A DNA stretch of 64,000 nucleotides, taken from sequence record MK524176.1. One strand, given 5' to 3'. Below the pieces are notes generated by a model. The model had not been told where the DNA came from. It made no database searches and saw only the letters and a list, made by a program, of their open reading frames with translations. Made by a program: the position numbers and the translations under genes. This document shows, piece by piece, positions 40,050-56,207 of the stretch. Numbering within the stretch: position 1 is the first letter of the stretch; every line of letters begins with the position of its first letter. The stretch comes from Escherichia phage PHB11.

Positions 40050-42194
40050 ATGAACAAAGTACAGATTATTAAAAAGAACGGCTCACTTGAAGAACCTGAT
40101 ATCAAAAAAGTTTTAGCAGCAGTAACTAAGTCAGCTAACAGAGTTGGGTATAAAGAACTCCCACCAGATGTTACCCAAGCTCTTGAGTCAGCATTTATGA
40201 GGATTCTGGTAAAGTCCACTAAGCAGAATAATTTGCTCATCTCGGTAAACGATATTCACAGTATTGTTGAAGGTGCTTTGGCAGAAGTCAATCACGAGAT
40301 TTATGAGTCTTACTCAACATACAGAAATTACCGTAAAGAGGTTGCTCAAAATTGGGATGAGCTTTACCAAAAGACTAAAGACACACTCTTCTTAGGTGAC
40401 CGTGAAAACGCTAACTTTGACAGTAGTTTAATTTCTACAAAAGGCTCAATTATTCGTGGTTACCTGACTAAAGAAATCTTTAAACAGTACCATTTAACAC
40501 CAGAGGAACTTGAAGCCATTGAAAAAGGGTTTATCTACATCCATGACTTAAGAGACCTAATTTTTGGTGGGATTAACTGTTGCCTGTTTGACATTGGTAG
40601 AGTACTGAAAGGTGGCTTTGAAATGTCTGGCATCGAATACTGTGAACCGAAGTCTGTACTGTCAGCCTTACAGGTTATCGGTGATGTAGTTCTTTCAGCA
40701 ACTGCACAGCAATTTGGTGGCTTTACTTTAGCAGAGATTGACAAGGTGCTTGTACCGTATGCTAAGAAGTCTCTACGCTATCATGCTGAGAAAGCAGCAT
40801 CTTACGGTATTCCTAAAGAACATTACCATAATTATGTCATGGAGCAGCTACAGATTGAATTAACTCAAGGTTTCCAGTCACTAGAGATGAAGCTAAATAC
40901 TGTACCTTGTAGCCGTGGTGATTTCGCATTCACAACTTTAACATTTGGTTTACTTGACTCAGACATGTCTAATGAAGACAACCGACTACAATACATGATT
41001 GCAAACACCATTCTTGATGTTCGCATGAATGGACAAGGTAAGAGCAAGAAGCCTGTTGTATTCCCTAAACTGGTTTATATTCATGACCAGAAGAGACACG
41101 ATGAGAATATCTGTCAAGGTCAACTGTACAGTAAAGCTATTGAGTGTTGCTCTAAAGCTATGTATCCAGATTTCTTAAGTGTATCTGGTCATGGTGCTGC
41201 AGCAGAGGCTTTTGAGCGTTCTGGCAAGGTAATTTCACCGATGGGTTGCAGAGCTTTCTTATCCCCATATTTTAACGAGAATGGAGAAGAGTTCTACGTT
41301 GGACGTGCTAACATTGGTGCTGTATCTTTGAACTTGCCAATGATTTACCAGTATTCTAAAGAGAATGGTTTAGATTTCTGGAAAGAGCTTGATAAGTACC
41401 TAGAGATGATTCGCAGCTTCCACAAGAAACGCTACGAAATGATTGCTAATATGCCAGCAAGCTCTAACCCTCTTGCATTCACACAAGGTGGTCTGTACAA
41501 AGGGACTAAGAAACCTACTGACAAGGTTGGTTGGGATATCGTGAAGTCTTTCACAGCTTCTTTTGGGGTTACTGCACTTGATGAGTTATCTGTTCTTGCT
41601 GAGGGTAAACGACTTCATGAAGTTGGAAGCTGTAGTTTTGCATACGATGTTCTGGCATACATTAACATGAAAACTGAAGAGTTTAAGAACGAAGATGGCT
41701 TCTTGTATGCGGTATATGGCACTCCAGCAGAGTCATTGTGTGGAACTCAGCTAAAACAGTTCAGAGATATGTTTGGCGTTATCAAAGGTGTTTCTGATAA
41801 GGAATATTTTACAAACAGTTTCCATATGAATGTTGCAGCAGATATCTCACCATTTGAGAAGCAGGACTTAGAAGAACCATTCTTCCATATCTGTAGAGGT
41901 GGTAGAATCCAGTATGTAAGGGTAGCTAACCCAGAAAACTTACCAGCACTTAAAAGTTGTATTACAAGAGGGATGTTGAAAGGTTTTTATCAGGGACTTA
42001 ACTTTGACTTAGCAATCTGTGAACATTGTGGTAACAGACCAAAGGCTGATGTTGAAGAATGTGAGGTTTGCCATTCACATGACATCTCTGTGATTAACAG
42101 GGTGTGTGGGTATCTTGGGTGGACTAAGATTAAAGGCGAATCCCGAATGAACGATGCAAAAATTGCTGAGATTCGTGATAGAGTCTCTATGTAA
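40050..42194 (+). CDS. nrdD: Anaerobic ribonucleotide reductase (class III)
   Basis: N-terminal ATP-cone, C-terminal zinc ribbon CEHCGN...CEVCH and glycyl-radical motif RVCGYLGW. Confidence 0.85.
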   Translation: MNKVQIIKKNGSLEEPDIKKVLAAVTKSANRVGYKELPPDVTQALESAFMRILVKSTKQNNLLISVNDIHSIVEGALAEVNHEIYESYSTYRNYRKEVAQNWDELYQKTKDTLFLGDRENANFDSSLISTKGSIIRGYLTKEIFKQYHLTPEELEAIEKGFIYIHDLRDLIFGGINCCLFDIGRVLKGGFEMSGIEYCEPKSVLSALQVIGDVVLSATAQQFGGFTLAEIDKVLVPYAKKSLRYHAEKAASYGIPKEHYHNYVMEQLQIELTQGFQSLEMKLNTVPCSRGDFAFTTLTFGLLDSDMSNEDNRLQYMIANTILDVRMNGQGKSKKPVVFPKLVYIHDQKRHDENICQGQLYSKAIECCSKAMYPDFLSVSGHGAAAEAFERSGKVISPMGCRAFLSPYFNENGEEFYVGRANIGAVSLNLPMIYQYSKENGLDFWKELDKYLEMIRSFHKKRYEMIANMPASSNPLAFTQGGLYKGTKKPTDKVGWDIVKSFTASFGVTALDELSVLAEGKRLHEVGSCSFAYDVLAYINMKTEEFKNEDGFLYAVYGTPAESLCGTQLKQFRDMFGVIKGVSDKEYFTNSFHMNVAADISPFEKQDLEEPFFHICRGGRIQYVRVANPENLPALKSCITRGMLKGFYQGLNFDLAICEHCGNRPKADVEECEVCHSHDISVINRVCGYLGWTKIKGESRMNDAKIAEIRDRVSM

Positions 42195-42349: not shown

Positions 42350-42550
42350 ATGTTTAAAATATCAAAAACGTTGATATACATACTCCACATTCTAATCTTC
42401 TTCTTTGGGGTTAGTGTTATGGTATGGGGTTTTTCAGACCCACAATGGAGTTTATCATATCATGGACAAATGGATTTATGGTCATGCTTCAAACCATTTT
42501 TAGGGTTAGTTATAGCATTCAGTGCATTACCAACTAGGGTGAAATTATGA
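42350..42550 (+). CDS. Small membrane protein
   Basis: 66 aa with two hydrophobic segments. Confidence 0.3.
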   Translation: MFKISKTLIYILHILIFFFGVSVMVWGFSDPQWSLSYHGQMDLWSCFKPFLGLVIAFSALPTRVKL

Positions 42551-42942
42551 TTAAGTTGAACCAAAAACAGTTAGAGTGGATTAAAGACTACGCCTCAGAG
42601 TGTGGCTCTTGCGAAAAGAATCACGTAAAATACTCAACATTCCATACAATCTTCACATTGTACATCAGCGACAATGTTCTAAGTGATTCCGTGGAAGACG
42701 GTGTAGCGTTACCTAATGAGTTACTTGATAAACTAGCTGTAGTCACTGGAACTTGGTCTGAAGAAGACGGTCATGAATTATCTGATGATGTTGTCTTCTA
42801 CACTCTTGAAAACATCATGAATCCAGAGTACATTATGCTAATGACTTGTGCACAAGACTGTGTGCCATTACAAAACTTCATTAAAGAACACTGTGAAGAG
42901 TTTATTACTAAACAGGTTCCTTGTCAGGTAGTGTTTGAATAA
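42547..42942 (+). CDS. Hypothetical Cys-rich protein
   Basis: 131 aa ORF between nrdD and nrdG. Confidence 0.35.
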   Translation: MIKLNQKQLEWIKDYASECGSCEKNHVKYSTFHTIFTLYISDNVLSDSVEDGVALPNELLDKLAVVTGTWSEEDGHELSDDVVFYTLENIMNPEYIMLMTCAQDCVPLQNFIKEHCEEFITKQVPCQVVFE

Positions 42943-42977
42943 GTAAAACAATTAAATAATATTGGTGAGGTAACTAG

Positions 42978-43463
42978 ATGAATTACATGGAGATTCGACC
43001 ATTTGACACAGCTAATGGTGAAGGGGTTCGTGTAAGCCTCTTCGTAGCTGGCTGTAAACATCACTGTGAAGGCTGCTTTAACAGGGAGTCTTGGAAGTTT
43101 AATGCTGGTAAAGAGTTTACTTATGCAAACCTCTACGGCATCATCAAGTTAATGGATGATAATGCTATCAGTGGGCTGTCAATACTGGGTGGGGAGCCTC
43201 TGGATGACAGAAACATTCAAGAGGTCACCAACATATGCAAGCGTATTAAAACTGTTTATCCAGAAAAGTCTATATGGCTTTGGACAGGTTTTCAACTACA
43301 CGAAAAAATCCACTTAGATGTGATGAAATATGTTGACGTGGTAATTGATGGTAAGTATGATTCTTCTAAACCAACAGTTAAACCATACCGTGGCTCTGAT
43401 AACCAAAACCTCTGGAGAAAAGAATATGGGTGGCAAGGCGATTGTCAATGGCGAGCAGAATGA
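42978..43463 (+). CDS. nrdG: Anaerobic RNR activating enzyme (radical SAM)
   Basis: CxxxCxxC cluster CKHHCEGC near the N-terminus; position after nrdD. Confidence 0.75.
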   Translation: MNYMEIRPFDTANGEGVRVSLFVAGCKHHCEGCFNRESWKFNAGKEFTYANLYGIIKLMDDNAISGLSILGGEPLDDRNIQEVTNICKRIKTVYPEKSIWLWTGFQLHEKIHLDVMKYVDVVIDGKYDSSKPTVKPYRGSDNQNLWRKEYGWQGDCQWRAE

Positions 43464-43701
43464 TTATTCTGGCAAGTGGACTTATGACATCAACAAGTTA
43501 GATGCCTGGATTATTTATACAAGAGAAAAATTTGGTGCACATTCATTATGTGCTCTTGCAACGATTGTAAAGAATGTAACCTTTGTCATACACGAGTCAG
43601 ATAAATTTGGAGACTTCTACAGGATTCAAAACATGAGAGAGGGTATCACTCCAATAGGAATCACTGAAGAAGAACTTCATAAGTTCTGCATTAAACTTTA
43701 A
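43426..43701 (+). CDS. Hypothetical protein
   Basis: Internal Met with GGAGAA upstream; ORF track start at 43345 overlaps nrdG. Confidence 0.3.
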   Translation: MGGKAIVNGEQNDYSGKWTYDINKLDAWIIYTREKFGAHSLCALATIVKNVTFVIHESDKFGDFYRIQNMREGITPIGITEEELHKFCIKL

Positions 43702-43716
43702 TGAGAGAGACTAAAA

Positions 43717-43983
43717 ATGGGAATTTTAGGTAATATGAAGGCTGGCTTCTTGAAGGCACTGGCAAAAGCAGCAGCAATCATTTCTATGACTGGAAAGCAG
43801 GTTGGTGTAGATGCTTCAGCAGTTGCACAAGTTCTTGCAAGCCAAATTGAACAGCAGCCTTACATCCACGTAGGACGTGGGAAAGGTGGTAAAAAACAAT
43901 CACATCGACCAACTGGTGCAGCAGCAATTAAACGTGCAGCTAAAAAAGCTCGTAACCGTAAACGTAACAAGAAGGCTAAATAA
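43717..43983 (+). CDS. Small basic protein (possible nucleic-acid-binding)
   Basis: Lys/Arg-rich C-terminus ...RAAKKARNRKRNKKAK. Confidence 0.35.
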   Translation: MGILGNMKAGFLKALAKAAAIISMTGKQVGVDASAVAQVLASQIEQQPYIHVGRGKGGKKQSHRPTGAAAIKRAAKKARNRKRNKKAK

Positions 43984-43985
43984 TC

Positions 43986-44306
43986 ATGAGCAAAATTTAT
44001 AACACTCGTAAATTACAGATTTTCGTACTGTGCCAGTTTATGGCTAAAGAGTATAACTGCTACTATTGTGGTACAGGGTTCATTAGTGATAATGACGGCT
44101 CATATCTACCATTCAAAGAGGCTGTAAAACTCTTCAATGAAGAGAAAAGCTCTAAGAAAGATATTGAAAAGGTTAAGCTAACCTACAGCAAGAAAGATAA
44201 GAAGATTATCTGCCTAGATAACTTTGTAAAAGTTACTGGAGAAGCAAAAGAGTTTATGGATGAGAGTGAAATCTCATTCACAAGCATCTTGAAAGTAGCT
44301 CAGTAA
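43986..44306 (+). CDS. Hypothetical protein
   Basis: 106 aa ORF followed by a hairpin/T-run. Confidence 0.35.
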   Translation: MSKIYNTRKLQIFVLCQFMAKEYNCYYCGTGFISDNDGSYLPFKEAVKLFNEEKSSKKDIEKVKLTYSKKDKKIICLDNFVKVTGEAKEFMDESEISFTSILKVAQ

Positions 44307-44360
44307 ACAGATACTATAAGGGGACTGTAAAGGTTCCCTTTTTATTTTTATGGAGATACT

Positions 44361-44876
44361 ATGTACCTGTCAAACCTGAAACGTTCGGCTGCAATGTCAG
44401 TTCTAAGACTCAGCTTTGAGGAACGTCAAGAGTTCATTGACTCCCACCAATACGACCCTTCTAACTCAAACCACATGATTCTCTGGAATCGTGATAACTT
44501 CCGTGAAAGAGCACTTGTCCGTTATTACCCACACTACACAATAGATAACCTGTATGAATGGTGTGTCGTGAAGAACACTATTACAACACTGAACAATCTT
44601 TGCAGGTATACAGGTAAGCAAACATTCACACTAGGCCACCATAAACCTATTACAAAAGGTGGTGAGCATCACTGTGCGAACTGGTTTATCCAAACTAAAG
44701 CTGATAACCAGAAGCAAGGAGATAGACTTCTAAGCACCCCTAAGATGACCTATGAAGAACAAGAGAAATATATCAAAAATAATATGCCAGATGTGCTTGA
44801 CAACAACTATACAGATTTGGCAATATCTCTCCTGTTGAAGTACGAGACAGTTTATAGGGCAACTTACAATGGCTAA
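44361..44876 (+). CDS. HNH-like nuclease motif protein
   Basis: GHHKPITKGGEHHCANW resembles the HH-P-GG-N core of HNH nucleases; the downstream Cys/His part is not evident. Confidence 0.4.
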   Translation: MYLSNLKRSAAMSVLRLSFEERQEFIDSHQYDPSNSNHMILWNRDNFRERALVRYYPHYTIDNLYEWCVVKNTITTLNNLCRYTGKQTFTLGHHKPITKGGEHHCANWFIQTKADNQKQGDRLLSTPKMTYEEQEKYIKNNMPDVLDNNYTDLAISLLLKYETVYRATYNG

Positions 44877-45147
44877 AGAGAAGTGGGAGATTTTACCATT
44901 AGTGAGTGAAGGTGGTAACGGTTGTGAGATGTACATGATACGTGGTCATGTCCCAGAACCAATTGCACTTGAGATGGTAAACAATTTTACAGATGGTTCT
45001 TACAAAGATTTAGGAGAGCCAACTATAAAGCATCAATGGGTCAAACCTGTACCAGACAGCACAGGTAACTGTAGTGTACTTTATCACGTTGTAGACCCTG
45101 CAAAATGCAAATCTGCAATGGCAGTAACAAACGTAACTTTTGATTGA
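44869..45147 (+). CDS. Hypothetical protein
   Basis: 92 aa ORF coupled to the Prs-like gene. Confidence 0.35.
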   Translation: MAKEKWEILPLVSEGGNGCEMYMIRGHVPEPIALEMVNNFTDGSYKDLGEPTIKHQWVKPVPDSTGNCSVLYHVVDPAKCKSAMAVTNVTFD

Positions 45148-45158
45148 GAGAGAAAACT

Positions 45159-46040
45159 ATGAAAACATCTATCCGTGTTACAGTTCATTCACCAACTAAA
45201 GGGACTCATGAAGAAGAGTTTAACATCATCCAATTCCCTTCTGGTGAGATTGGTGGACACTTTTCACCAGAGTTTGTTGACTTCACTGCTTATGCAGCAT
45301 CATCTATCAACAATGTGATTATGATTGTAAAAGGTTATGATAAAGATACATTGTTTGCTGTGGCACTTGCTAAAGAGGCAGTGGACAACTTAGTACCTCA
45401 TAAGTTTGCTATGAAGACTGTCATCTTTTACTATTTACCAAATGCACGTTACGACCGTCACATGTTTAAAGGTGATGCAGCAGCTTTGAAAGTGTTTGCA
45501 CAACAGGTTAATGCAATGGGTTTTGATGCAGTTTGTGCAGTTGACCCTCACAGCTATGTACCAGATAACCTGTTTAACTGTTTCCAGAGTATTCCTCAAA
45601 AGGAAATTGCAGTCCACTATGCAAATGACCCACTGGTTGATTACTTAGTAGCCCCAGATGCAGGTGCTGCTAAGAAGATTGCAGAAACTGCTAAAGAGGT
45701 GGATAAACCATATATCACAATGTCTAAAGTACGTGACCTTAAGACTGGTGAAATTACTGGTATGCGAATCCTTGATGATGTTGATTTGACAGATAAAACC
45801 GTTATGATTCTTGATGATATCTGTGATGGAGGACGAACCTTCATAGAAGCAGCTAAACATCTTCGCGAAGCAGGTGCAAAACGTGTGGAACTGTACGTAA
45901 CACATGGTATCTTCTCTAAAGATGTTGAAAACCTTCTTGACAATGGTATTGACCACATCTACACTACAAACTCTTTAGGGGAAGCTAAAGACCGTGGATT
46001 AACACATTATAGTCAAGTTACTGTAGCAAACCTTGATTAA
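45159..46040 (+). CDS. Ribose-phosphate pyrophosphokinase (Prs) family protein; candidate ADP-ribose pyrophosphate synthetase (Adps-like)
   Basis: PRPP-binding loop VMILDDICDGGRT...AGAKRV...THGIFS typical of Prs; ATG 45159 with GAGAG upstream (track uses TTG at 45144). Confidence 0.65.
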   Translation: MKTSIRVTVHSPTKGTHEEEFNIIQFPSGEIGGHFSPEFVDFTAYAASSINNVIMIVKGYDKDTLFAVALAKEAVDNLVPHKFAMKTVIFYYLPNARYDRHMFKGDAAALKVFAQQVNAMGFDAVCAVDPHSYVPDNLFNCFQSIPQKEIAVHYANDPLVDYLVAPDAGAAKKIAETAKEVDKPYITMSKVRDLKTGEITGMRILDDVDLTDKTVMILDDICDGGRTFIEAAKHLREAGAKRVELYVTHGIFSKDVENLLDNGIDHIYTTNSLGEAKDRGLTHYSQVTVANLD

Positions 46041-46049
46041 AACTTTATA

Positions 46050-46070
46050 GGGGCTTTAAGCCCCATTTTG
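46050..46070 (+). terminator. Short hairpin between Prs-like and NAMPT-like genes (weak terminator/processing signal)
   Basis: GGGGCT-TTA-AGCCCC followed by ATTTTG. Confidence 0.3.
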
Positions 46071-46084
46071 AGAGAGATTAAAAG

Positions 46085-47866
46085 ATGACTAAATCACTTT
46101 ATGCAGTACCAGCAGGTTTAAACGCAGATGCTTACAAATCTGGTCACATTTACCAGTATCCTAGCGCAACAGAATACTTGATGTTCAACCTGACACCACG
46201 TAGTGATAAATGGTTTAACAGTCCTTTAGCAATTGACGGTGTGGTGGCTTTTGGTATTCAACGTTTTGTTAAAGACTACTTAATAGACCACTGGAACGCC
46301 ACCTTCTTCGAACGTGACAAAGAAGAAGCAATTGACGAAATCTTAGAAGTCATGAACGGTGTTCTGGGTAAAGATGCTATTGGCCGTGAACATTGGGAAG
46401 CACTTCACGACTTAGGTTATCTACCAGTTGAAGTATACGCTGTAGAAGAAGGCACAGTTGTTCCTATGCGTGTACCAATGATTGTCTTCCAGAACACTGT
46501 TTCAGGTTTCCATTGGGTAGCGGGGTATCTGGAAGATGCTTTCTCTGCTGAGATTTGGAAGGCTTGTACCATTGCAACTATTGCATTGCACTACAAACGT
46601 ATCTGTAAGAAGTGGTCTGACCTTACTTGTGATAACGACTTACATTTGCCTTATCAGTGCCATGACTTTGCTATGCGTGGTATGTCCGGCTTTACCGATG
46701 ACGCATTTAACGCTGTAGGCCACTTAACCAGCTTTAAAGGAACTGATAGCTTCCCTGCTGTATATACAGCTAAACGCATCTATGGACAGTCCTACCCAAT
46801 CTCTGATATTGGTAGCTCTGTACCAGCCACTGAGCACTCTGTAATGTGTGCAAACATTGCTTGGGAAGGTGGTAATGAGTTGATTGAAGAAGAAAGACGC
46901 TTTAAAGGTGAGTTACAGACCTTCCGTCGTTTCTTAACAGAAACTTACCCAACTGGTATTGCAAGTGTTGTTTCAGACACTTATAACTTTTGGAGAACTG
47001 TGTCAGAAATCTTACCAGCACTTCGTAAAGAGATTATGGAACGTGATGGCAAACTGGTCATTCGTCCTGACTCTGGCGACCCTGTACATATTGTCACAGG
47101 TTATAAAGCAATCCACTTAGAGTGTGCTAAAAAGGCTTATTACGAACACCTAAGCAAGCTGGAAGCCAGCGACACAATGCTGAATGCTGTTCTGAACATG
47201 AAGCTTGAAAACATCAACTATGGTATTGCTGGATGGCTACTGTCAGAAGGCTACGAAATGGTTGTTGACAGAGAAGACTTTGAAGTTGCTGATACAGTGC
47301 TGTTGAAAAATGCTTATATGGTTGGTTCTGCAAACGTTGTAACACGTCCTGTAGCAGAGATTGATGGGGCTATTAAGACCCTGTATAACATCTTTGGAGG
47401 GACTATCAACTCTAAAGGTTTTAAGGTACTGGATGAGCACATCGGCCTTATTTATGGTGACTCTATCACGTTGGAACGTGCAAACGAAATCCTTAAGCGT
47501 TTGTATGAAATGGGTTTTGCAAGCTCTAACGTAGTGTTTGGTGTAGGTTCTTACACTTACCAGTATATGACTCGTGACACCTTTGCATTTGCTGTCAAAG
47601 CAACTCTTGCAAGCATTGGTGGTAAAGAGATTATGCTTGCAAAAGACCCTAAAACAGATAGTGGTGTTAAGAAGTCTGCTTTTGGTGGTGTAGCACCTAT
47701 GTGGGATGGTGATAAGCTGAAAGCTGTAGATGGCTATGGATTCCAGAGCTTTGAAGATGTACTTGAGCATCCAGCTTGTGCTTTACGTTTAGTCTTTAGC
47801 GAATCTGAGCAGTTTGGCTACACAACTCTTGGTGATATTCGAAATAATATTGACAAGCAACTCTAA
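46085..47866 (+). CDS. Nicotinamide phosphoribosyltransferase (NAMPT) family protein; candidate Namat-like enzyme
   Basis: 593 aa with NAMPT signature block HLTSFKGTDSFPA and GDS-containing C-terminal region. Confidence 0.7.
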   Translation: MTKSLYAVPAGLNADAYKSGHIYQYPSATEYLMFNLTPRSDKWFNSPLAIDGVVAFGIQRFVKDYLIDHWNATFFERDKEEAIDEILEVMNGVLGKDAIGREHWEALHDLGYLPVEVYAVEEGTVVPMRVPMIVFQNTVSGFHWVAGYLEDAFSAEIWKACTIATIALHYKRICKKWSDLTCDNDLHLPYQCHDFAMRGMSGFTDDAFNAVGHLTSFKGTDSFPAVYTAKRIYGQSYPISDIGSSVPATEHSVMCANIAWEGGNELIEEERRFKGELQTFRRFLTETYPTGIASVVSDTYNFWRTVSEILPALRKEIMERDGKLVIRPDSGDPVHIVTGYKAIHLECAKKAYYEHLSKLEASDTMLNAVLNMKLENINYGIAGWLLSEGYEMVVDREDFEVADTVLLKNAYMVGSANVVTRPVAEIDGAIKTLYNIFGGTINSKGFKVLDEHIGLIYGDSITLERANEILKRLYEMGFASSNVVFGVGSYTYQYMTRDTFAFAVKATLASIGGKEIMLAKDPKTDSGVKKSAFGGVAPMWDGDKLKAVDGYGFQSFEDVLEHPACALRLVFSESEQFGYTTLGDIRNNIDKQL

Positions 47867-47880
47867 AAGTATATGATAAG

Positions 47881-47905
47881 AGGCTCCTACGGGAGCCTTT
47901 TTAAT
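47881..47905 (+). terminator. Intrinsic terminator
   Basis: AGGCTCC-TAC-GGGAGCCT hairpin followed by a T-run. Confidence 0.6.
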
Positions 47906-47919
47906 TTCTGGAGAAGATT

Positions 47920-48255
47920 ATGAAAATCAAAGAAATGAATATCAATATTGTCTTAGAAGAACGTTGGGAGAACATCAAGAAGCCTGAAAATGGTCATAAG
48001 TTCCTCAACAAAATCTTAGTAGCAGCTAAAGAAGAACTGACTGGCAAGGTTGCAGCAGCAATCACAATAAAGGTCTGTGTAAAAGGTCTTCCAGACAATC
48101 ACCAATTTGCACTTGACGAGTTTAAAGAAAGCTTCTACAATCCAAACAAACAGATGCTTGAAAGTAACTTTGCAGTATCTACAAGTATCGTCCATGACAG
48201 AAGCTTTATCCTTTACAAGAATATGAGAGGTGAGTCATGCAAGCATATTGGATAG
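47920..48255 (+). CDS. Hypothetical protein
   Basis: 111 aa ORF. Confidence 0.35.
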   Translation: MKIKEMNINIVLEERWENIKKPENGHKFLNKILVAAKEELTGKVAAAITIKVCVKGLPDNHQFALDEFKESFYNPNKQMLESNFAVSTSIVHDRSFILYKNMRGESCKHIG

Positions 48256-48414
48256 AAATTTTACTGTCACTTGGTAGTGTAGCAGTGTTTGTTTACCTTC
48301 TTTGCAAGTACTATGCAGAGCACAAAAAATGTGACTTCTGTAATGGAGAAGGTTATACAAGAGCAGGTTGTTGCCCTATGTGTGGTGGTTCTGGTAAAAT
48401 GTTTAATAAGTAAT
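48238..48414 (+). CDS. Small membrane zinc-ribbon protein (not in ORF track, 58 aa)
   Basis: MQAYWIEILLSLGSVAVFVYLLCKYYAEHKKCDFCNGEGYTRAGCCPMCGGSGKMFNK: hydrophobic helix plus CxxC...CxxC. Confidence 0.3.
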
Positions 48415-48441
48415 TTAACAGTAAACTAAGAGGAAAGTATT

Positions 48442-50808
48442 ATGCGCATGGTAAATGACCACGCAGAAGTGATTAAGAGTTCAACTTCTTTAGAGACATC
48501 TCAAGCACAGATTACAATGACACCTGAAATGTTCAGCCTTCTGAGTTCTGGTGTATATACCTTTAAAGAGCGAGCAGTAATTCGTGAACTGTCATGTAAC
48601 GCAGTAGATGCTCAGAAAGAAGCTGGAAAAGAGGACATCCCGTTCCATGTGCATTTACCTACTCGTTTTGAGCCTTACTTTGAAGTTCGTGATTTTGGAA
48701 CTGGATTGACTCATGATAAAGTTATGAGTTTGTATCTAAATTACGGGGCTTCTACGAAGAATGACTCTAATGATTACATTGGTGCAATGGGTATCGGTTC
48801 AAAATCTCCATTTGCAATCGCTCAGTCATTCACAGTATCTAGCTATGTTGATGGTGTTGTTAATAAGTACTCTGTTTACCTTGAGAATGGCATCCCTCAA
48901 GTAACTAAGCTGACCACCAACCCAACAAAAGAACCTAATGGTTTAGCTGTACGTGTAGCAGTTGCTGACCATCGTATTTCAAAGTTCTTTGAAGAAGCTG
49001 GTCACGTATACTCATACTTTGCTGTAAAACCAGAAAGTAATATCGAGTATGACGATGTATTAGCAGACATGAATGTCATTGCCCGTGAAGAAGGTGTTTA
49101 TGATGCCATGATTCACAAACAAAGCTGGCGTTCTAGTGGCAACAGGACAGAGTTTAATGTGGTGATGGGTAACATTGCCTACCCAGTTAACATGGAAGCA
49201 TTACTTGGTGATGATTTCTTCAAAGTCTTGCCAGAGTTTTTCCGTAGGAGCGTAGACCTTGTAAACATCTATATGCCTATTGGTTCAGTTGCTATTGCAG
49301 CTTCTCGTGAAGCATTGCAGATGAATGATACAACAAAAAATGTTATCATTGAGGCTACTAAAAAGATAACTGAAGCAATTACAAAGGATGTTATCAAGAA
49401 AGTTAATAGCCAACCTACACTCATGGATGCTGCACAGGCTTATGCTGAGTTACGTTTAAACTCACGAGAGATGTTTAATGCTGTGTGTCCAAAACTAGAG
49501 TGGGGAGGCGTTAAGCTTGATTCTTTGGAAGAAGAATTGCTAAACATTCGTCGTGGAATTATCTACGCAGAAGACGGCTCAGTTATCTATGAACGTGATG
49601 GTAAAGGTAATATTAAGGTTGATAGGAACGGAAACAATATCCCTAAAGTAGATTATCTTTATAATCCAGTTGCTTATGTTAAGTTCAACTCTTTAGAAAG
49701 TAAGATTCGTGCAACAGCACTTTCCTACACTCAAGAGGCAAGTATGTTCAATATCTTTGGCGCAATGCGTAAAAGTCAAATTGAACAGTTTTTGTTTGTT
49801 ATAAATGACCGTCGCAATAAAAATGGTACTGAGAAGACTGTAGGACGCAATCAGATTCTGCGTGGTGCATGTCGAGACTATGCCAGCGAGTCAAGTCTGT
49901 TTCACAGATACAATGGTATTGTCTTTGTATTCTCTAATGAGGAAGAGCTAGATGATTTAATCAATCTGCACAAACTTGATAAAAGCTTGTTAAAGATTGT
50001 GAAGATGTCTGATAAGGAACATCATTATCAGCGTAAAGAAGCTGTAAGAGGTGTTGTAAAACTTTGGAAAGCTGTTCCAGCAGAAGGTGTAGCTTCATAC
50101 AAAGAGGTGTCAGAAGACTTAGATACGATTGAGGAGCCTCAGCTTTATATTAAGGCAGTAGGCGACACAGTTGATGGCGAATGTTTTTGCTCATCTCCAG
50201 AAGATGTAGCTAAGTCAGTTGCCAATGTCATTGGAAAGACAGTATATGTTTTCCGAAAAGCAAATTGGAAAAAGATACCAGAAGACTGGATTGAAGTAGA
50301 TGAGAAGCTCTTGAACGACAGCTTAACTGATGTTCACTGGATTAATCATAACAGGTATATGACACGTATCTATATGAATGGTGTCCTAGACCTGACAAGC
50401 AGTTGGATTATTGCCAGAAACTTTACGTTCAATAACAGGAAGATTTCTCGTGGTTATTGCTATTCACGAGACACAAACAAAACTATCTTCTTAGAAGGTA
50501 ATGAAGATGCTGTTGAGGCAATGTTTGGTAAAATCCAATACGTTGCTGCACCGTTTGCATACACTTATACTGTTAGCAGGTTGCAAACTTTGAAAGAATG
50601 CCTTGACAATGATACAAAGCTGTACAAGAAAATCAAGAAAGCTGGTGACCGTATGGTCATTAAGGTGACAAACTATCTTTCAAAAAGAAAACAAGAAAAC
50701 TTCTTGCTTTCTCATTTAGATTGGAATAAAGTGTCACCCATCGAAGTGAGTAAGTTCTTAGGCTTTGATGTGAAGTGTGTTCCAGAAGGGACTACAATTT
50801 ACGATTAA
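48442..50808 (+). CDS. rIIA: rIIA-like protein with GHKL-type ATPase domain
   Basis: Bergerat-fold boxes RELSCNAVDA (N box), DFGTGL (G1), GAMGIGSKS (G2); followed by an rIIB homologue. Confidence 0.6.
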   Translation: MRMVNDHAEVIKSSTSLETSQAQITMTPEMFSLLSSGVYTFKERAVIRELSCNAVDAQKEAGKEDIPFHVHLPTRFEPYFEVRDFGTGLTHDKVMSLYLNYGASTKNDSNDYIGAMGIGSKSPFAIAQSFTVSSYVDGVVNKYSVYLENGIPQVTKLTTNPTKEPNGLAVRVAVADHRISKFFEEAGHVYSYFAVKPESNIEYDDVLADMNVIAREEGVYDAMIHKQSWRSSGNRTEFNVVMGNIAYPVNMEALLGDDFFKVLPEFFRRSVDLVNIYMPIGSVAIAASREALQMNDTTKNVIIEATKKITEAITKDVIKKVNSQPTLMDAAQAYAELRLNSREMFNAVCPKLEWGGVKLDSLEEELLNIRRGIIYAEDGSVIYERDGKGNIKVDRNGNNIPKVDYLYNPVAYVKFNSLESKIRATALSYTQEASMFNIFGAMRKSQIEQFLFVINDRRNKNGTEKTVGRNQILRGACRDYASESSLFHRYNGIVFVFSNEEELDDLINLHKLDKSLLKIVKMSDKEHHYQRKEAVRGVVKLWKAVPAEGVASYKEVSEDLDTIEEPQLYIKAVGDTVDGECFCSSPEDVAKSVANVIGKTVYVFRKANWKKIPEDWIEVDEKLLNDSLTDVHWINHNRYMTRIYMNGVLDLTSSWIIARNFTFNNRKISRGYCYSRDTNKTIFLEGNEDAVEAMFGKIQYVAAPFAYTYTVSRLQTLKECLDNDTKLYKKIKKAGDRMVIKVTNYLSKRKQENFLLSHLDWNKVSPIEVSKFLGFDVKCVPEGTTIYD

Positions 50809-50813
50809 AGTGT

Positions 50814-50843
50814 TTGACAAGGGGCTTCAAAGCCCCTTAAAAT
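50814..50843 (+). promoter_or_regulatory. Promoter-like element with a hairpin in the spacer, upstream of rIIB
   Basis: TTGACA, then AGGGGCTTCAAAGCCCC (GGGGCT/AGCCCC stem), then TAAAAT. Confidence 0.4.
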
Positions 50844-50887
50844 AGCCTCACAAAATAATTTATTAACTAACAAGAGAGAGTAATAAG

Positions 50888-51997
50888 ATGACTACTAAAA
50901 CTAAAGCACAGATTGACGCAGAAATTTACAAACTGGTTAAAGAAGGTAAGCTGACTAAAACAGCTATTGCACAGAAGTTCAATACTTCAACCCGTTCAGT
51001 TGGTCGTGCTGTAGAGCGCCATGAAGCAACCTTAAAGGGTAAGAAAAAGATAGCTTCTAAACCAGCTACGAAGACTTTGAAGCAAGTTGCTAAATCAGTT
51101 AAAAAGAAAACTGGAAAACCAGTTGAAAAGGCCGTTAAAGACACTGTACAAAAGGCTCCGGTAAATAAACTGCACGAAGCTATGCAGAAAGATAACAAGA
51201 TTGAGTACATGATTACTGGCGACTCTGTAATTATGACTTACGGTTCAGAATCTGAAATTGTTGAGTCTACTCATCCGAACTATCAAGAGATTGTAGTTCA
51301 TGTTGTGAAAGGTGAGTTCAAGAAAGCCTTTGAACTGATGAACATTCGTAAGTCTATCGAAAACTTTACTCAGGGTGCTATCACAATCAAAGGTGACAAG
51401 TTATTCTACGGTGCTGTTGAGATGCGTTCTACTCTGGTTGACCGTATCCTTCACATGATGAAGACTGGTGATAAAGGTTTTGAACGACTTGTAATGTTCT
51501 TCGAAAAACTGATGGAAAACCCATCTAAAGACTCTGTAGAACAACTTTGGGGATTTGTATCTCACCTTGATGTTGAAATTGATGAAGAAGGCTACATCAT
51601 TGGTTGGAAGAAAGCCTCTACTCGTGAAGGCAAGCTGGTTGACTCTCACACCTACAAAGTACCTAATGATTTGGGTAACATTGTAGAAATGCCACGTTGG
51701 ATGGTTGATAACAACCGTAACGTGACTTGCTCTCAGGGTCTTCATGTTGGTGCTTGGGACTATGTCCGTTGCTTCTCAGGTGATACAATTCTGAAGGTTC
51801 GTGTCCATCCACGAGATGTTGTATCTGTTCCAACTGATTACAACGATATGAAGATGCGTTCGTCCCGTTATGAAGTTGCAGCAATCGTTGATAATCAACG
51901 TAAAGTGCTGAAAGCATGGGACGGTAAGACTGAAGCTTTGCATGTCATCGTTGGCACTGCTGGTGAACTTATCTCTCAACGTAAGCGTGAAATCTAA
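50888..51997 (+). CDS. rIIB: rIIB-like protein
   Basis: Blocks KLFYGAVEMRSTLVDRIL and KVRVHPRDVVSVPTDYNDMKMRSSRYEV closely match my recollection of T4 rIIB. Confidence 0.7.
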   Translation: MTTKTKAQIDAEIYKLVKEGKLTKTAIAQKFNTSTRSVGRAVERHEATLKGKKKIASKPATKTLKQVAKSVKKKTGKPVEKAVKDTVQKAPVNKLHEAMQKDNKIEYMITGDSVIMTYGSESEIVESTHPNYQEIVVHVVKGEFKKAFELMNIRKSIENFTQGAITIKGDKLFYGAVEMRSTLVDRILHMMKTGDKGFERLVMFFEKLMENPSKDSVEQLWGFVSHLDVEIDEEGYIIGWKKASTREGKLVDSHTYKVPNDLGNIVEMPRWMVDNNRNVTCSQGLHVGAWDYVRCFSGDTILKVRVHPRDVVSVPTDYNDMKMRSSRYEVAAIVDNQRKVLKAWDGKTEALHVIVGTAGELISQRKREI

Positions 51998-52014
51998 TAA
52001 GTAATTTCTTAAAA

Positions 52015-52036
52015 GGCTGCTTCGGCGGCCTTTTTT
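52015..52036 (+). terminator. Intrinsic terminator after rIIB
   Basis: AGGCTGC-TTCG-GCGGCCT hairpin followed by TTTTTT; a TATAAT hexamer follows at 52061-52066. Confidence 0.55.
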
Positions 52037-52097
52037 ATTTGTATTTTGTGCAGAGTGCTGTATAATTGTTGTCACGATAAACTAAACAGGAGAACCA

Positions 52098-52646
52098 ATG
52101 AAGAAGTTGATTCTAGGTTTGTGCTTAATGTTTACAGCACACTTATCTTATGCAGTTGACTGCCCAGAGCTATCAATTAGCCAAAAAGTAAACATGTTAA
52201 AAGCTTACCAGTATGGTGAGAATAATATGGGTAAAGGTTGGGGTATCACTCTAGCTGCTATAGCCTTACAAGAGTCAGAGTTAGGTCTGAAGGTAGAGAA
52301 TAAAAAGACCCATGACTATGGTATCTTCCAGAATCACTTGAAGACTGTTGTAAAGCGTAACAAAATCAGTCCTAATGTGGCTAAAAAGAAACTCTTAAAA
52401 GACTTTGACTATGCTGCAAAGGAAACACACAAAGAGCTTGAGTTTTGGACTAAGGTACATGGTCAACCAAAGTCAAAGAAGACTTTACAAAAAGTTTTAG
52501 CGTCATATAATGCTGGGTATTCGTACAAAATCCCTAAAGCTAAGAAATACTCTCAAGATGTTTACAACAATATGAAAGTCATCGCTCAATGTGAATTTGC
52601 AACAAACATTTCTAAGGTAAACCATGAAAAAATTAAGAAAGTCTGA
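52098..52646 (+). CDS. Secreted lytic transglycosylase (SLT domain); endolysin candidate
   Basis: Signal peptide MKKLILGLCLMFTAHLSYA; SLT motifs ALQESELG, YGIFQ, SYNAGYSY. Confidence 0.6.
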   Translation: MKKLILGLCLMFTAHLSYAVDCPELSISQKVNMLKAYQYGENNMGKGWGITLAAIALQESELGLKVENKKTHDYGIFQNHLKTVVKRNKISPNVAKKKLLKDFDYAAKETHKELEFWTKVHGQPKSKKTLQKVLASYNAGYSYKIPKAKKYSQDVYNNMKVIAQCEFATNISKVNHEKIKKV

Positions 52647-53319
52647 TGAAGTCCTGTGCCATGCTTACGACTTGCACCCTCATGAGTTAGGTCTTGATTC
52701 CTGTGTATGGACTCCAGAACAGTGCAGAGATTTTGAAGATACTGCAAGAGAAGTTGTATGTTCACTTGAAGAGTTCCACACATCAGAACCAATTGTGAGC
52801 GTTGTGGACAAAGAGACTGGACAATCTATAGGTGTAAGACGTGACAGTTTAGTCATAGTCAATAAAGACCTTGTAGAAAAAGGTAACCTCATCTTAGCAG
52901 ACATTGATGGTGTTCTTACAAATTTTAATCACGAAGATTGCTCAACAGAATTGATTGATGGGTCATTTTCACAGTACACTAATTTGCTTGACTCTGTAAG
53001 AGCAAAACCAACGTATGTTTTCAATATTATTGATGCAATTGCTAACCATGCTGCCATTGGACTCTTGACAGCGAGGGGTGAATCTCAGAGAATACCTACT
53101 GAGATGTTTTTAAGGCATTACATAGAGCATGATTACATGCTTTTCATGCGTGGTTTTGGAACTAACTCTATAGATGCAGAAAGTTTGAAAGTGAGGATGA
53201 TTCAGTCTTGCATTCTTCCTTACTTTAATATAGTATGTTTTATAGAAGATACAGAGAAGAATGTTCAGAAGGTAAACAGAATCCTTCCGCACATTAAAAC
53301 TATGTTAGTAAAACATTGA
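52624..53319 (+). CDS. HAD-superfamily 5'(3')-deoxyribonucleotidase-like phosphatase
   Basis: Motif I LADIDGVLTNF (DxDGVLxxF) typical of NT5C/HAD nucleotidases. Confidence 0.45.
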   Translation: MKKLRKSDEVLCHAYDLHPHELGLDSCVWTPEQCRDFEDTAREVVCSLEEFHTSEPIVSVVDKETGQSIGVRRDSLVIVNKDLVEKGNLILADIDGVLTNFNHEDCSTELIDGSFSQYTNLLDSVRAKPTYVFNIIDAIANHAAIGLLTARGESQRIPTEMFLRHYIEHDYMLFMRGFGTNSIDAESLKVRMIQSCILPYFNIVCFIEDTEKNVQKVNRILPHIKTMLVKH

Positions 53320-53329
53320 GAGAAAACTT

Positions 53330-53794
53330 ATGAACAATATCATTACGGTAGCACTGGACGTTACGGCAAACAAATCTGAAGTAGTTCGTAACATTATCAA
53401 AAGCAACTTTGAGGGTAAAATCTTCCGTGCTGTCAATGTAAAAGCAGACGGTAACATCCGAGAGTATCGTGCTCTTCTGAATGTTAAGAAACACGTCAAA
53501 GGTGCTGGTTCAACGACTGCACACAAAGAAAACCTGATGACTATCTATGATATGGGTATGGCTTCAGAGTTAGGTGCTGAAGGTATCGTTAAAGAAGGTG
53601 CTCCGTATCGCTCTTTCAATCTGGAAACTGCTCTTATGCTTTCCTTTACAAGTGGTTCTAAAACAACTACTTATCTCTTTACTGATGCTGCAACGGTATC
53701 TGCTATCAAGGATAGCACCGTCAAAGCTGGGGTAGCTGCTGCTGCAAAAGCTTCTTCGATGGCTGCAAATGTCCTTGCTAAAGTCCTCGGTTAA
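53330..53794 (+). CDS. Hypothetical protein
   Basis: 154 aa ORF followed by a terminator. Confidence 0.35.
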   Translation: MNNIITVALDVTANKSEVVRNIIKSNFEGKIFRAVNVKADGNIREYRALLNVKKHVKGAGSTTAHKENLMTIYDMGMASELGAEGIVKEGAPYRSFNLETALMLSFTSGSKTTTYLFTDAATVSAIKDSTVKAGVAAAAKASSMAANVLAKVLG

Positions 53795-53805
53795 GGTTAA
53801 GATAC

Positions 53806-53829
53806 AGGCTCCTTCGGGAGCCTTTTTCA
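53806..53829 (+). terminator. Intrinsic terminator
   Basis: AGGCTCC-TTCG-GGAGCCT hairpin followed by TTTTT. Confidence 0.6.
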
Positions 53830-53846
53830 TTTCAGGAGATTGTTAA

Positions 53847-54194
53847 ATGACATTTAAAGAGTTCTGCCAAGCTACTTTCATAATTGTTTTCTTAGTTGGA
53901 GCAGGTGTCTGGGGAGGATACTCTTACAGAGACTACCAAGTTGCTGAAGCTGAGCTAAATAATGAGAAACTAATAAGTGTTGCTAAAGATGCTTATCAGG
54001 AAGGTTTAGCCACACTCAGCACCAATTACAAAAATGATTTGAAAGACGTGCTTGCTAAGAATAAGCACACAAAAGAGGTACTAACATATGAAAAGACTAA
54101 GCCAGAGTTTTATAATGTTTGTGTTACTGATAATTATGTCAGGGTGTTCAACGAACAAAGTGAACAGTACATTCAAAAACTCCCAAGTAAGTGA
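53847..54194 (+). CDS. Inner-membrane spanin (Rz-like) candidate
   Basis: N-terminal TM helix FIIVFLVGAGVWGGYSY followed by periplasmic coiled-coil; overlaps an out-of-frame lipoprotein ORF. Confidence 0.45.
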   Translation: MTFKEFCQATFIIVFLVGAGVWGGYSYRDYQVAEAELNNEKLISVAKDAYQEGLATLSTNYKNDLKDVLAKNKHTKEVLTYEKTKPEFYNVCVTDNYVRVFNEQSEQYIQKLPSK

Positions 54195-54357
54195 GGGTGA
54201 CAAGTACACTCAAGAAGAGTCAAGATTCACTGTCAAAGGTAATACTGGTAGTGATGTGGCAGCAGCCCTTGAGTTTTATCGTGATGGTTTTTACCAGTGC
54301 ACAATCAAAGCTAATAACCTTATTGACATGATTTTATTAGGGAACAAACAGCAATGA
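54088..54357 (+). CDS. Outer-membrane spanin (Rz1-like lipoprotein) candidate, overlapping the i-spanin gene
   Basis: Signal peptide with lipobox-like IIMSGC; start embedded in the 3' part of 53847..54194 in another frame. Confidence 0.45.
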   Translation: MKRLSQSFIMFVLLIIMSGCSTNKVNSTFKNSQVSEGDKYTQEESRFTVKGNTGSDVAAALEFYRDGFYQCTIKANNLIDMILLGNKQQ

Positions 54358-54623
54358 CAGAGAATGAAGACACTTTCTATGTAGAAGGGTACTTACTGCT
54401 ACCACGACCAAAAGAAACTTATATGCGGGTTGATTTCTCACCAACCATTATGGACAACGTGATGTGTCATATCTTTATGCAAGGTGTCACAGCACAGCTT
54501 AAGCATGTTGGTAAAGAGTGTAAAATAAAGGTTGACACTCATCCAGAAATCAAAGAGAATCACTACACATGGTTCTTACCAGACTCTAAAGAAATCTTAG
54601 CAGTTCTTAAAACGAGGAAGTGA
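54354..54623 (+). CDS. Hypothetical protein
   Basis: 89 aa ORF. Confidence 0.35.
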   Translation: MTENEDTFYVEGYLLLPRPKETYMRVDFSPTIMDNVMCHIFMQGVTAQLKHVGKECKIKVDTHPEIKENHYTWFLPDSKEILAVLKTRK

Positions 54624-54952
54624 CTATGCAGATTAACGGAAGAGATTTTGTAGCCGTTTACTACGAGAAAGATAAAGAAGTTGGCGTAGCACAAGTATCT
54701 TATGGCAATGGTAAGTGGTTGTATGGGACAATCGCAGTAGTTGGAACAAGAAGTGATACAAAAACTTTTAAAGATTGTGTTGACCTTCTTGAAGAATCCA
54801 TCCACAATCATTGGTGTCTGATATGGATGACTGACAACGAAGTGATAGAACGCTTCAAAAAGATTGGTATCAACATTGATAGTATTGAGCATGTTGATTT
54901 ATACGAACTAACTGAGAAGGTAAACTATGAGAGTAATACTAGCCAGAGATAA
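54620..54952 (+). CDS. Hypothetical protein
   Basis: 110 aa ORF. Confidence 0.35.
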   Translation: MTMQINGRDFVAVYYEKDKEVGVAQVSYGNGKWLYGTIAVVGTRSDTKTFKDCVDLLEESIHNHWCLIWMTDNEVIERFKKIGINIDSIEHVDLYELTEKVNYESNTSQR

Positions 54953-55160
54953 AAAGACCCGTAAGATTGTACGTTCAGCAGTATTCATAGGGAGAGATGA
55001 AGTCGTCCCGTTTGCAGGGGAAGATGTGCTAACTTATAAGAAGGGTTTAAAACGTAAATTCAGTGACCGTTTACGTGGCTTCATCTCTGAACCATTAGAA
55101 GATTTCAAAAGTCGCTGTGGCGAAGGCATCATCATTCAAGAGGCAATTATTCATGGCTGA
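54927..55160 (+). CDS. Hypothetical protein
   Basis: 77 aa ORF. Confidence 0.3.
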   Translation: MRVILARDKKTRKIVRSAVFIGRDEVVPFAGEDVLTYKKGLKRKFSDRLRGFISEPLEDFKSRCGEGIIIQEAIIHG

Positions 55161-55353: not shown

Positions 55354-56139
55354 ATGGGTATTGTAAAAATTATCAAAGGCAACATCTTTGACGCATTTGA
55401 TAAAGGTAAGTTTGATATCATTGGTCATGGTTGCAACTGTATGAATTTCATGGGTGCAGGTATTGCAGCAACTATTTCTAAGCGTTATCCAAAAGTATAT
55501 GATACTGATACAGAAGTTTACCTGTTTGCAGGTGGTATTCGTCACAAACCATGTGAAAATCTGCTAGGTAATTTCTCTGTAACACGTTTAAAACAAGGCC
55601 GTATAGCCAATCTTTACACCCAGCTTCATACCGGTAAAGATGCCCGATATAGTGCTTTAGAGTCATCTTTGAAACAGCTTAACAGATACTGTGAAGTTAA
55701 TCAGTTGAAGAAAGTTGGGTTACCTATGATTGGTGCAGGTATCGGTGGACTAGACCCTCAAGCCGTCACAGTTATCATTAATCAGGTGATGAAGAGTGTA
55801 GATGTTTACCTGTATGTCTATGAGACAGAGATGTACAACGAGTTACACTCAGGTTGGAAGAACTACTGTGAACCAGAATACTTTGCAGGTGTAGTAGTGT
55901 TCACTGATGATGCAGTTACCCTCTTCAGACGAAGAAAAGGCAAGATACATCAAAGTAACCCTCCGGTTGAAAAGATGTCTCTAAGTAACGCTCTAGTTAC
56001 CCACCTGTCGAAGAGCAATCACAGAATTGCAGTAACATTTGGCAGTGATGCAGATACATATATCTATGCAAGAACTGATGAGGATATCGAGACGGTCTTC
56101 TCTTCACCGGAAGTAACCTTCTTAGACGCAAAGAACTAA
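55354..56139 (+). CDS. Macro-domain protein (ADP-ribose binding/processing) with C-terminal extension
   Basis: Macro-like blocks IIKGNIFDA, DIIGHGCNCMNFMGAGIAATI and VGLPMIGAGIGGLDP. Confidence 0.55.
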   Translation: MGIVKIIKGNIFDAFDKGKFDIIGHGCNCMNFMGAGIAATISKRYPKVYDTDTEVYLFAGGIRHKPCENLLGNFSVTRLKQGRIANLYTQLHTGKDARYSALESSLKQLNRYCEVNQLKKVGLPMIGAGIGGLDPQAVTVIINQVMKSVDVYLYVYETEMYNELHSGWKNYCEPEYFAGVVVFTDDAVTLFRRRKGKIHQSNPPVEKMSLSNALVTHLSKSNHRIAVTFGSDADTYIYARTDEDIETVFSSPEVTFLDAKN

Positions 56140-56207
56140 GAAACTCTGTAGAATATTCACAATAGGTTAAGCCTTTCTTATCTGGTAAATTTTTCAGGTA
56201 AGGAGGG

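Follow-up and report, generated by a model that had tools for sequence, protein, structure and literature searches.

The adps-namat gene pair of Escherichia phage PHB11 is, by position and sequence, an orthologue of the founding NARP1 operon

NAD+ reconstitution pathway 1 (NARP1) was discovered in phage Bas63 (JohannRWettstein), where genes 79-80 form the operon encoding its two enzymes, Adps and Namat (Osterman et al., bioRxiv 10.1101/2024.02.11.579819). Deletion of the two genes made Bas63 ~20-fold more sensitive to the NAD+-depleting defence SIR2-HerA; the intermediate, ADP-ribose (ADPR)-pyrophosphate (ADPR-PP), was seen only when wild-type Bas63 infected defence-carrying cells, and the effect was independent of host pncC and nadR (bioRxiv 10.1101/2024.02.11.579819). 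The SPbetaL1 homologues convert ADPR and ATP to ADPR-PP, and ADPR-PP and nicotinamide to NAD+ (bioRxiv 10.1101/2024.02.11.579819), and published work has shown the enzyme chemistry of NARP1 for the SPbetaL1, DyoEdafos and P. foliorum enzymes. Here we analyze a Prs-like gene (45159-46040) and the NAMPT-like gene that follows it (46085-47866) in a 64,000-nucleotide stretch of Escherichia phage PHB11 (MK524176.1), referred to below as the window.

These two genes, adps and namat, almost certainly constitute a NARP1 operon in a phage of the Felix O1-like group. The open reading frame (ORF) listing places four + strand ORFs, of 171, 92, 293 and 593 aa, in the order of bas63_0077 to 0080, and the lengths are identical in the Bas63 annotation (516, 279, 882 and 1782 nt; MZ501086). 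Identity to the Bas63 proteins is 80% for Adps (233/293 residues, gap-free, versus Bas63_0079) and 98% for Namat (581/593 residues versus Bas63_0080), and it is 91% and 99%, respectively, for the two upstream products, an HNH-like protein (versus 0077) and a 92 aa protein (versus 0078). By position and by sequence, then, the pair is an orthologue of Bas63 genes 79-80. The genomic setting is that of Felixounavirus: megablast of 44300-47900 returned 256 phage records, nearly all of them Felixounavirus (Felix O1-like) phages of Escherichia, Salmonella, Shigella and Citrobacter, with 224 covering at least 80% of the query at ~90-96% identity. The adps-namat pair alone is carried by 255 records. 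At the DNA level, hundreds of Felixounavirus genomes match the locus with 93-97% identity. The flanks also fit this genus, with NrdD and NrdG upstream and rIIA and rIIB downstream, and the PHB11 window is that of a Felix O1-like phage.

The initial annotation had described a Prs-like gene with a phosphoribosyl pyrophosphate (PRPP)-binding loop followed by a NAMPT-like gene, and had proposed that the two are NARP1 Adps and Namat. ORFs, motifs, Pfam and PHROGs all agree with the first of these statements; the orthology with Bas63 79-80, together with the clamp and catalytic residues of Namat described below, bears out the second. The Prs-like protein contains the quoted motif, ILDDICDGGRTFIEAAKHLREAGAKRVELYVTHGIFS, and matches Pribosyltran (1e-11) and Pribosyl_synth (4.8e-10) in Pfam and 'ribose-phosphate pyrophosphokinase' in PHROGs (E = 5.5e-99). 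Placement against hidden Markov models (HMMs), which the same annotation had suggested, sets it apart from the cellular enzymes. Among NCBIfam models it clears the cut-off of a single broad subfamily model, TIGR01251 (127.7 bits versus 113), and fails all cellular Prs equivalog models, scoring 45-107 bits against cut-offs of 296-536 (for example, 106.9 versus 296 bits and 69.4 versus 438 bits). The best-matching solved structures are cellular or archaeal Prs, with E = 6e-19 or weaker. When the protein was aligned with the Adps sequences of Bas63, Erwinia phage Panisse (38% identity), SPbetaL1 and FADO, its K190 fell on SPbetaL1 K162, mutation of which inactivates SPbetaL1 Adps (bioRxiv 10.1101/2024.02.11.579819). 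By profile scores and alignment, the Prs-like protein belongs to the phage Adps group, distinct from cellular Prs. By analogy with its homologues, it would convert ADPR and ATP to ADPR-PP.

The NAMPT-like protein contains the motif GHLTSFKGTDSFPAVY, and matches NAPRTase (7.7e-35) and NAMPT_N (2.9e-5) in Pfam and 'nicotinamide phosphoribosyl transferase' in PHROGs (E = 2.8e-201). Its best matches in the PDB are the SPbetaL1 Namat structures 9W5W/9W5X (E = 7e-128), to which it is roughly 50% identical, a figure estimated from the PDB alignment rather than computed. In Namat, selectivity is conferred by a clamp made up of the SCH motif, GSX-phi-X-phi-X-phi-TRD, and a stacking residue of the SCL loop; the SCH motif is reported to be absent from Nampt, and where Lys or Tyr occupies the third SCL position the next residue stacks, as in Bas63 (PMC12774641). 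In PHB11 the SCH motif is present as G488-S-Y-T-Y-Q-Y-M-T-R-D498 (GSYTYQYMTRD), and the SCL loop reads S40-D41-K42-W43, the Lys-then-aromatic order described for Bas63. We then mapped SPbetaL1 numbering onto PHB11 Namat through the 9W5W/9W5X PDB alignment. NAD+-contact residues are kept at 17 of the 19 mapped positions, namely D15, Y17, F195, R198, D221, A248, R327, D329, G458, D459, G488, S489, Y494, T496, R497 and D498, plus a conservative change of F392 to Y490 that is counted among the 17. At the two remaining positions, SPbetaL1 S190 is replaced by A196 in PHB11, and A362 by S460. The histidine of the ATEH motif, H251, is invariant across a 40-sequence alignment. As judged from these residues, Namat has both its clamp and its catalytic core intact, and the enzyme is predicted, again by analogy, to join ADPR-PP and nicotinamide to give NAD+.

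PHB11 Namat also carries two segments that SPbetaL1 Namat does not have, one of ~80 aa at residues 340-426 (window positions ~47102-47362) and one of ~15-20 aa near residues 258-276 (~46856-46912). With such segments, Namat proteins of Ounavirinae exceed the crystallised SPbetaL1 enzyme by ~100 aa. In a multiple alignment, the site of the larger segment carries unrelated insertions in many Namat/Nampt lineages. A known domain was considered for the ~80 aa insertion and rejected, as Pfam gave no match; the word 'insertion' does not occur in the structural paper on Namat (PMC12774641).

Taken together with the published work, these observations suggest the following sequence of events. NAD+-depleting defences, with effectors of the SIR2, TIR or SEFIR type, cleave NAD+ and so release nicotinamide and ADP-ribose. 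The diverged Prs-family diphosphokinase Adps would then transfer pyrophosphate from ATP onto the ADP-ribose, yielding ADPR-PP, and Namat, with its adenine-binding clamp at the active-site entrance, would condense ADPR-PP with nicotinamide to NAD+. The NAD+ pool would thereby be restored and the phage could replicate. We infer that the PHB11 pair carries out this conversion of ADPR via ADPR-PP to NAD+, and that it counters NAD+-depleting defence as its Bas63 orthologue does against SIR2-HerA. Because the pair is orthologous to the published founding operon of Bas63, PHB11 NARP1 represents an already known system.

Several points weigh against this assignment. Both the chemistry (from SPbetaL1) and the anti-defence phenotype (from the Bas63 deletion) would be carried over from homologues, and the SPbetaL1 proteins tested in vitro are only 29% (Adps) and roughly 50% (Namat, the estimate given above) identical to those of PHB11. 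The Adps sequence does not in itself reveal whether ADPR is preferred to ribose-5-phosphate, because no structure or substrate-specificity determinants of Adps are known. Namat homologues retain PRPP-to-NMN (nicotinamide mononucleotide) activity in vitro (PMC12774641), and hence some classical salvage flux is possible. Finally, there is a 20% difference between PHB11 Adps and the Bas63 allele that was tested, concentrated in the N-terminal half of the protein.

The last of these points concerns the adps alleles. Nucleotide identity to Bas63 is 65-78% over ~45150-45650, the 5' half of adps, compared to 93-97% elsewhere in the locus. Using tblastn, we found two Adps allele classes in Felix O1-like phages, one represented by more than 150 records that are 90-99% identical to PHB11 Adps and the other Bas63-like/Mooglevirus-like and 76-80% identical. 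PHB11 thus has the common allele, which is therefore not the allele that was tested experimentally, Bas63 belonging to the minority class. The N-terminal half of adps shows a mosaic, fast-diverging allele structure.

The features of the locus are listed in Table 1. The start of the 92 aa ORF overlaps the stop of the HNH-like ORF by 8 nt, and its end lies 11 nt 5' of adps. For adps itself, starting at an alternative TTG (45144) would lengthen the protein to 298 aa; the ATG at 45159 agrees with the Bas63 annotation. The adps and namat genes lie on the same strand (+), separated by a spacer of 44 nt (46041-46084), in which the terminator scan gave no match. One terminator-like hairpin stands directly 5' of the HNH-like ORF, and phage ASO1A has an annotated rho-independent terminator at the corresponding place. 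The other starts 12 nt past the namat stop; its fold energy was reached by none of 200 shuffles, and a terminator is annotated at the matching site in phage Barry. These hairpins probably mark the 5' and 3' boundaries, respectively, of a transcription unit. Because the four ORFs are tightly packed between them, a single four-gene transcript appears likely. The top sigma-70-like promoter match of the region, TTGACA-16-TATGAT (11/12), lies at 47850-47877 (+), overlapping the final namat codons directly 5' of the downstream hairpin; ASO1A has a promoter annotated there.

Table 1. Features of the PHB11 adps-namat locus and the distal Macro-domain gene, in window coordinates
Feature	Position	Strand	Remarks
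HNH-like ORF (phrog_3500)	44361..44876	+	171 aa; orthologue of bas63_0077
92 aa ORF (phrog_4726)	44869..45147	+	orthologue of bas63_0078
adps, putative Prs-family ADP-ribose diphosphokinase	45159..46040	+	293 aa; orthologue of bas63_0079
namat, putative NAMPT-family nicotinamide ADP-ribose transferase	46085..47866	+	593 aa; orthologue of bas63_0080
Terminator-like hairpin + T-run	44318..44340	+	consensus scan; fold -11.9 kcal/mol, z = -2.46
Small GC hairpin GGGGC-TTTAA-GCCCC, adps-namat spacer	46050..46064	+	fold -11 kcal/mol, z = -2.35
Terminator-like hairpin + T-run	47878..47901	+	consensus scan; fold -16.6 kcal/mol, z = -3.91
Poa1p-like Macro-domain protein, outside the adps-namat locus	55354..56139	+	261 aa; orthologue of bas63_0095

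Given this layout, the NARP1 operon might extend to all four genes, with the HNH-like protein, the 92 aa protein or both acting as accessories to Adps and Namat in the way that Adpp and RyDEP do elsewhere. The tight packing (8-nt overlap, 11-nt gap) between two terminator-like hairpins is in keeping with this idea, as are the conservation of the order HNH-like ORF, small ORF, adps, namat across Ounavirinae and the precedent for accessory genes within NARP1 operons. However, domain scans revealed no ADPR- or NAD+-handling domain in either protein. The 92 aa ORF is confined to Felixounavirus, Mooglevirus and Suspvirus-like phages (230 records, in 13 clusters down to 55% identity), it received no family assignment in Pfam or NCBIfam scans, and its predicted structure is of low confidence with generic fold matches. 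An RyR/R12 domain (PF02026), the mark of a RyDEP-type extension, was not found in this ORF or its neighbours, even at E <= 10. Furthermore, the small ORF at the equivalent position in Erwinia phages is not homologous to the 92 aa ORF, the HNH-like gene stands apart from NARP1 in Stephanstirmvirinae, and deletion of Bas63 genes 79-80 alone abolished the phenotype (bioRxiv 10.1101/2024.02.11.579819). An accessory role for either upstream gene is thus unlikely. The two ORFs are better viewed as lineage-specific neighbours of adps-namat that probably share its transcription unit.

In a classical reading of the pair, the Prs-like enzyme would supply PRPP from ribose-5-phosphate, the NAMPT-like enzyme would make NMN, and host NadR or PncC would complete NAD+. 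Nearly all database records annotate both genes in this way, the Pfam and NCBIfam families are those of Prs and NAPRTase/NAMPT, and Namat homologues still turn PRPP and nicotinamide into NMN in vitro (PMC12774641). On the other hand, the SPbetaL1 Prs-like enzyme gave no product in an ordinary Prs assay, yet phosphorylated ADPR (bioRxiv 10.1101/2024.02.11.579819). In PHB11, the adenine clamp that confers selectivity for ADPR-PP is intact in Namat, and Adps scores below every Prs equivalog cut-off. We regard a simple boost of salvage as very improbable, and favor NARP1. Related to this, the initial annotation had remarked that no NMN adenylyltransferase (NMNAT) is visible nearby. Our scans concur: the flanking ORFs scanned with Pfam (42547-57326) gave no nucleotidyltransferase match, and a six-frame search of the 64 kb window, which leaves ~23 kb of the phage genome outside, did not find the nucleotidyltransferase signature G-x-F-x-P-x-H-x-G-H.

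The initial annotation had also noted an HNH-like ORF upstream of the pair, and PHROGs, profile alignment and a predicted structural element agree with that call. The ORF matches phrog_3500 (unknown function) with E = 1.3e-92 and, weakly, the HNH endonuclease family phrog_2214 (E = 2.2e-6), and it lies below Pfam thresholds. We used hhalign to compare a profile of 16 homologues with a bona fide PF01844 protein (cyanophage McrA, Pfam E = 5.7e-17). The match had a probability of 82.5% (E = 9.7e-6), and it placed FTLGHHKP..GG....NW......DNQKQGD on the D-H...N...N core, with H93, N107 and N116 on the H-N-N catalytic positions. All three residues are invariant among the 16 homologues. In the AlphaFold model (pLDDT 68.5), residues 89-119 form a beta-beta-alpha element (beta 89-94, beta 108-112, alpha 113-119). 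A Foldseek search of the PDB with this model found nothing significant (best E-value 0.38), and hence the call rests on sequence profiles. These profiles indicate that description of the 171 aa ORF as an HNH-like (beta-beta-alpha-Me) protein is correct.

It had been further suggested that the pair travels as a mobile unit with this ORF, which would then be a homing or mobilizing nuclease that moves adps-namat between phage genomes. In favor of this are a genuine HNH core, the place of the ORF directly upstream within the same terminator-bounded block, and the label 'putative HNH homing endonuclease' in some records. Nonetheless, the distribution of the gene argues otherwise. By tblastn, the HNH-like ORF occurs in 429 phage records, with one copy in each. 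Approximately 246 of these show at least 60% identity, and they are essentially the same genomes as the 255 with the adps-namat pair; the ORF is found in essentially all NARP1-bearing Ounavirinae, without presence/absence polymorphism. The ORF has diverged in step with the genes beside it. In Panisse, an Erwinia Kolesnikvirus that keeps the order HNH-like ORF, small ORF, adps, namat, the HNH-like protein is 44% identical, comparable to Adps (38%) and to similarly deep long-form Namat relatives (roughly 46-54%). The gene is also found away from NARP1, and NARP1 away from the gene. In phi92, where the homologue gp200 is annotated as 'HNH endonuclease-like fold', and in Phapecoctavirus anhysbys, the HNH-like homologue sits beside nrdA-like and UvrD-helicase genes, with no Prs or Nampt gene within 5 kb. 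Conversely, no HNH-like gene stands beside NARP1 in SPbetaL1, FADO or Vibrio phage Gary, that is, in the Bacillus and Vibrio phage systems, and Adps-carrying groups of Pseudomonas, Mycobacterium and Bacillus phages are missing from the leading host groups of the HNH-like family. The ORF is, moreover, unrelated to the variable HNH_3/AP2 endonuclease found in the adps-namat spacer of relatives. Its single copy, fixed position and vertical-like divergence, as seen by tblastn and from the gene context in phi92, anhysbys, Panisse, SPbetaL1, FADO and Gary, led us to reject the mobile-unit idea, to which we give hardly any credence; on this comparative evidence, the HNH-like gene is a conserved, single-copy, syntenic Ounavirinae gene and not a homing endonuclease. 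NARP2, in which Nampt is paired with the NMNAT/Nudix protein NatV, was ruled out by the absence of any NMNAT in the Pfam scan of the flanking ORFs and the motif scan of the window.

In relatives of PHB11, true homing endonucleases have a hot spot at the adps-namat locus. Many of these relatives have one in the spacer between adps and namat: in GEC_vB_NS7, ST11 and ASO1A it is an HNH_3/AP2 enzyme of 163 aa, and a note in the ASO1A record states that Felix O1 itself has a homing endonuclease in this spacer. The PHB11 spacer is free of endonuclease and contains only the small GC hairpin. In ST11, namat is annotated as two overlapping pieces. Pr103Blw has two extra ORFs that separate the 92 aa ORF from adps, at a site that is empty in PHB11, and bas63_0081, the 345-nt ORF that immediately follows namat in Bas63, is missing in PHB11, corresponding to an indel of ~350 bp at 47917. 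Outside the locus, NrdD (40050-42194, +) is a single uninterrupted ORF of 714 aa in PHB11, and the Bas63 NrdD gene is annotated as two joined pieces around a homing endonuclease (bas63_0067/0068).

Some NARP1 operons include a third gene, adpp. Its product, a phosphatase acting on ADPR-1''-phosphate, makes NARP1-AP out of NARP1 and overcomes the defence aRES; the published survey, which extended no further than two genes to each side of an operon, puts the share of NARP1 phages with Adpp at 15% (bioRxiv 10.64898/2026.01.28.702374). Table S1 of that work contains no Felix O1-like phage (bioRxiv 10.64898/2026.01.28.702374). In PHB11, Pfam revealed no Macro domain in the ORFs of 43345-50808, and so none within two genes of the operon. 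A Macro gene does occur 7.5 kb, or about 14 ORFs, downstream of namat; it came to light in a check of a Bas63 gene annotated as 'putative phosphatase'. In its 261 aa product, Pfam places a Macro domain at the N terminus (E = 3.3e-7, exceeding the gathering score). The product also has an extra, unassigned C-terminal extension of ~100 aa, and its PDB matches are OARD1 and Poa1p. BLASTP against Adpp of Vibrio phage Gary gave 27% identity over 156/158 residues (E = 2e-14). We also built an HMM from the 10 NARP1-operon Macro proteins in Table S1 of the aRES paper (bioRxiv 10.64898/2026.01.28.702374), and the distal protein was its sole match in the window, over the full profile (108 bits, E = 5e-33).

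Based on this similarity, we hypothesize that the distal protein is a candidate Adpp-like ADPR-1''-phosphate phosphatase that feeds NARP1 in trans. It would remove the phosphate from ADPR-1''-phosphate, which aRES-type phosphorolysis of NAD+ produces, and the resulting ADPR would then be converted to NAD+ by adps-namat, encoded 7.5 kb upstream. That Felix O1-like phages run a dispersed NARP1-AP of this kind is a tentative proposal, and on balance a doubtful one. One caveat here is that the Macro family is very widespread, occurring in 3008 phage records, many T4-like phages included, compared to only 1418 for Adps, and hence co-occurrence with NARP1 alone proves nothing. If the proposal is true, these phages are predicted to resist aRES, and the figure of 15% is an underestimate, because the survey was limited to two genes on each side. 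In that case, a distal Adpp-like gene may widen the reach of NARP1 to defences that produce ADPR-1''-phosphate, in a phage genus that is large and used in therapy.

It is worth stating what the locus adds. NARP1 was recognisable here from raw sequence alone, although nearly every record labels the pair as ordinary Prs and NadV/NAPRTase. The PHB11 adps-namat genes offer little new biology; what modest value remains comes from the distal Adpp-like gene, the mosaic structure of the adps allele and the two upstream ORFs.

Among described systems, Bas63 NARP1 is the closest. The two phages belong to the same genus and arrange their genes alike, the two upstream ORFs included, with ORFs of equal length and high identity (Namat 98%, Adps 80%, 92 aa ORF 99%, HNH-like 91%), whereas PHB11 has a divergent allele in the 5' half of adps and no bas63_0081. 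Like SPbetaL1 NARP1 (PMC12774641), the PHB11 operon encodes Adps followed by Namat, and the catalytic Lys, the catalytic core, the SCH motif and the NAD+ contacts are kept. The PHB11 system differs in that Namat is longer (593 aa versus about 491 aa) because of two extra segments, Adps is only 29% identical, and the SCL stacking residue, R40 in SPbetaL1, corresponds to K42/W43. With NARP1-AP of Vibrio phage Gary, where the order is Adps-Adpp-Namat (bioRxiv 10.64898/2026.01.28.702374), PHB11 shares genes for Adps, Namat and a full-length Adpp homologue, but its Macro gene is outside the operon, and the putative phosphatase that it encodes has an additional ~100 aa at the C terminus. NARP2 of Vibrio phage KVP40 (NadV/Nampt plus the NMNAT-Nudix protein NatV) likewise uses a NAMPT-family enzyme to rebuild NAD+ during infection; in PHB11, we found no NMNAT/Nudix partner, and a Prs-family partner and the adenine clamp are seen instead. 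Cellular salvage by Prs and NadV/NAMPT draws on the same two superfamilies and the same conserved phosphoribosyl-transfer chemistry. Unlike the cellular enzymes, however, PHB11 Adps falls far below the Prs equivalog cut-offs and Namat has the GSYTYQYMTRD clamp, and whereas salvage uses ribose-5-phosphate and PRPP, published NARP1 chemistry uses ADPR and ADPR-PP (bioRxiv 10.1101/2024.02.11.579819).

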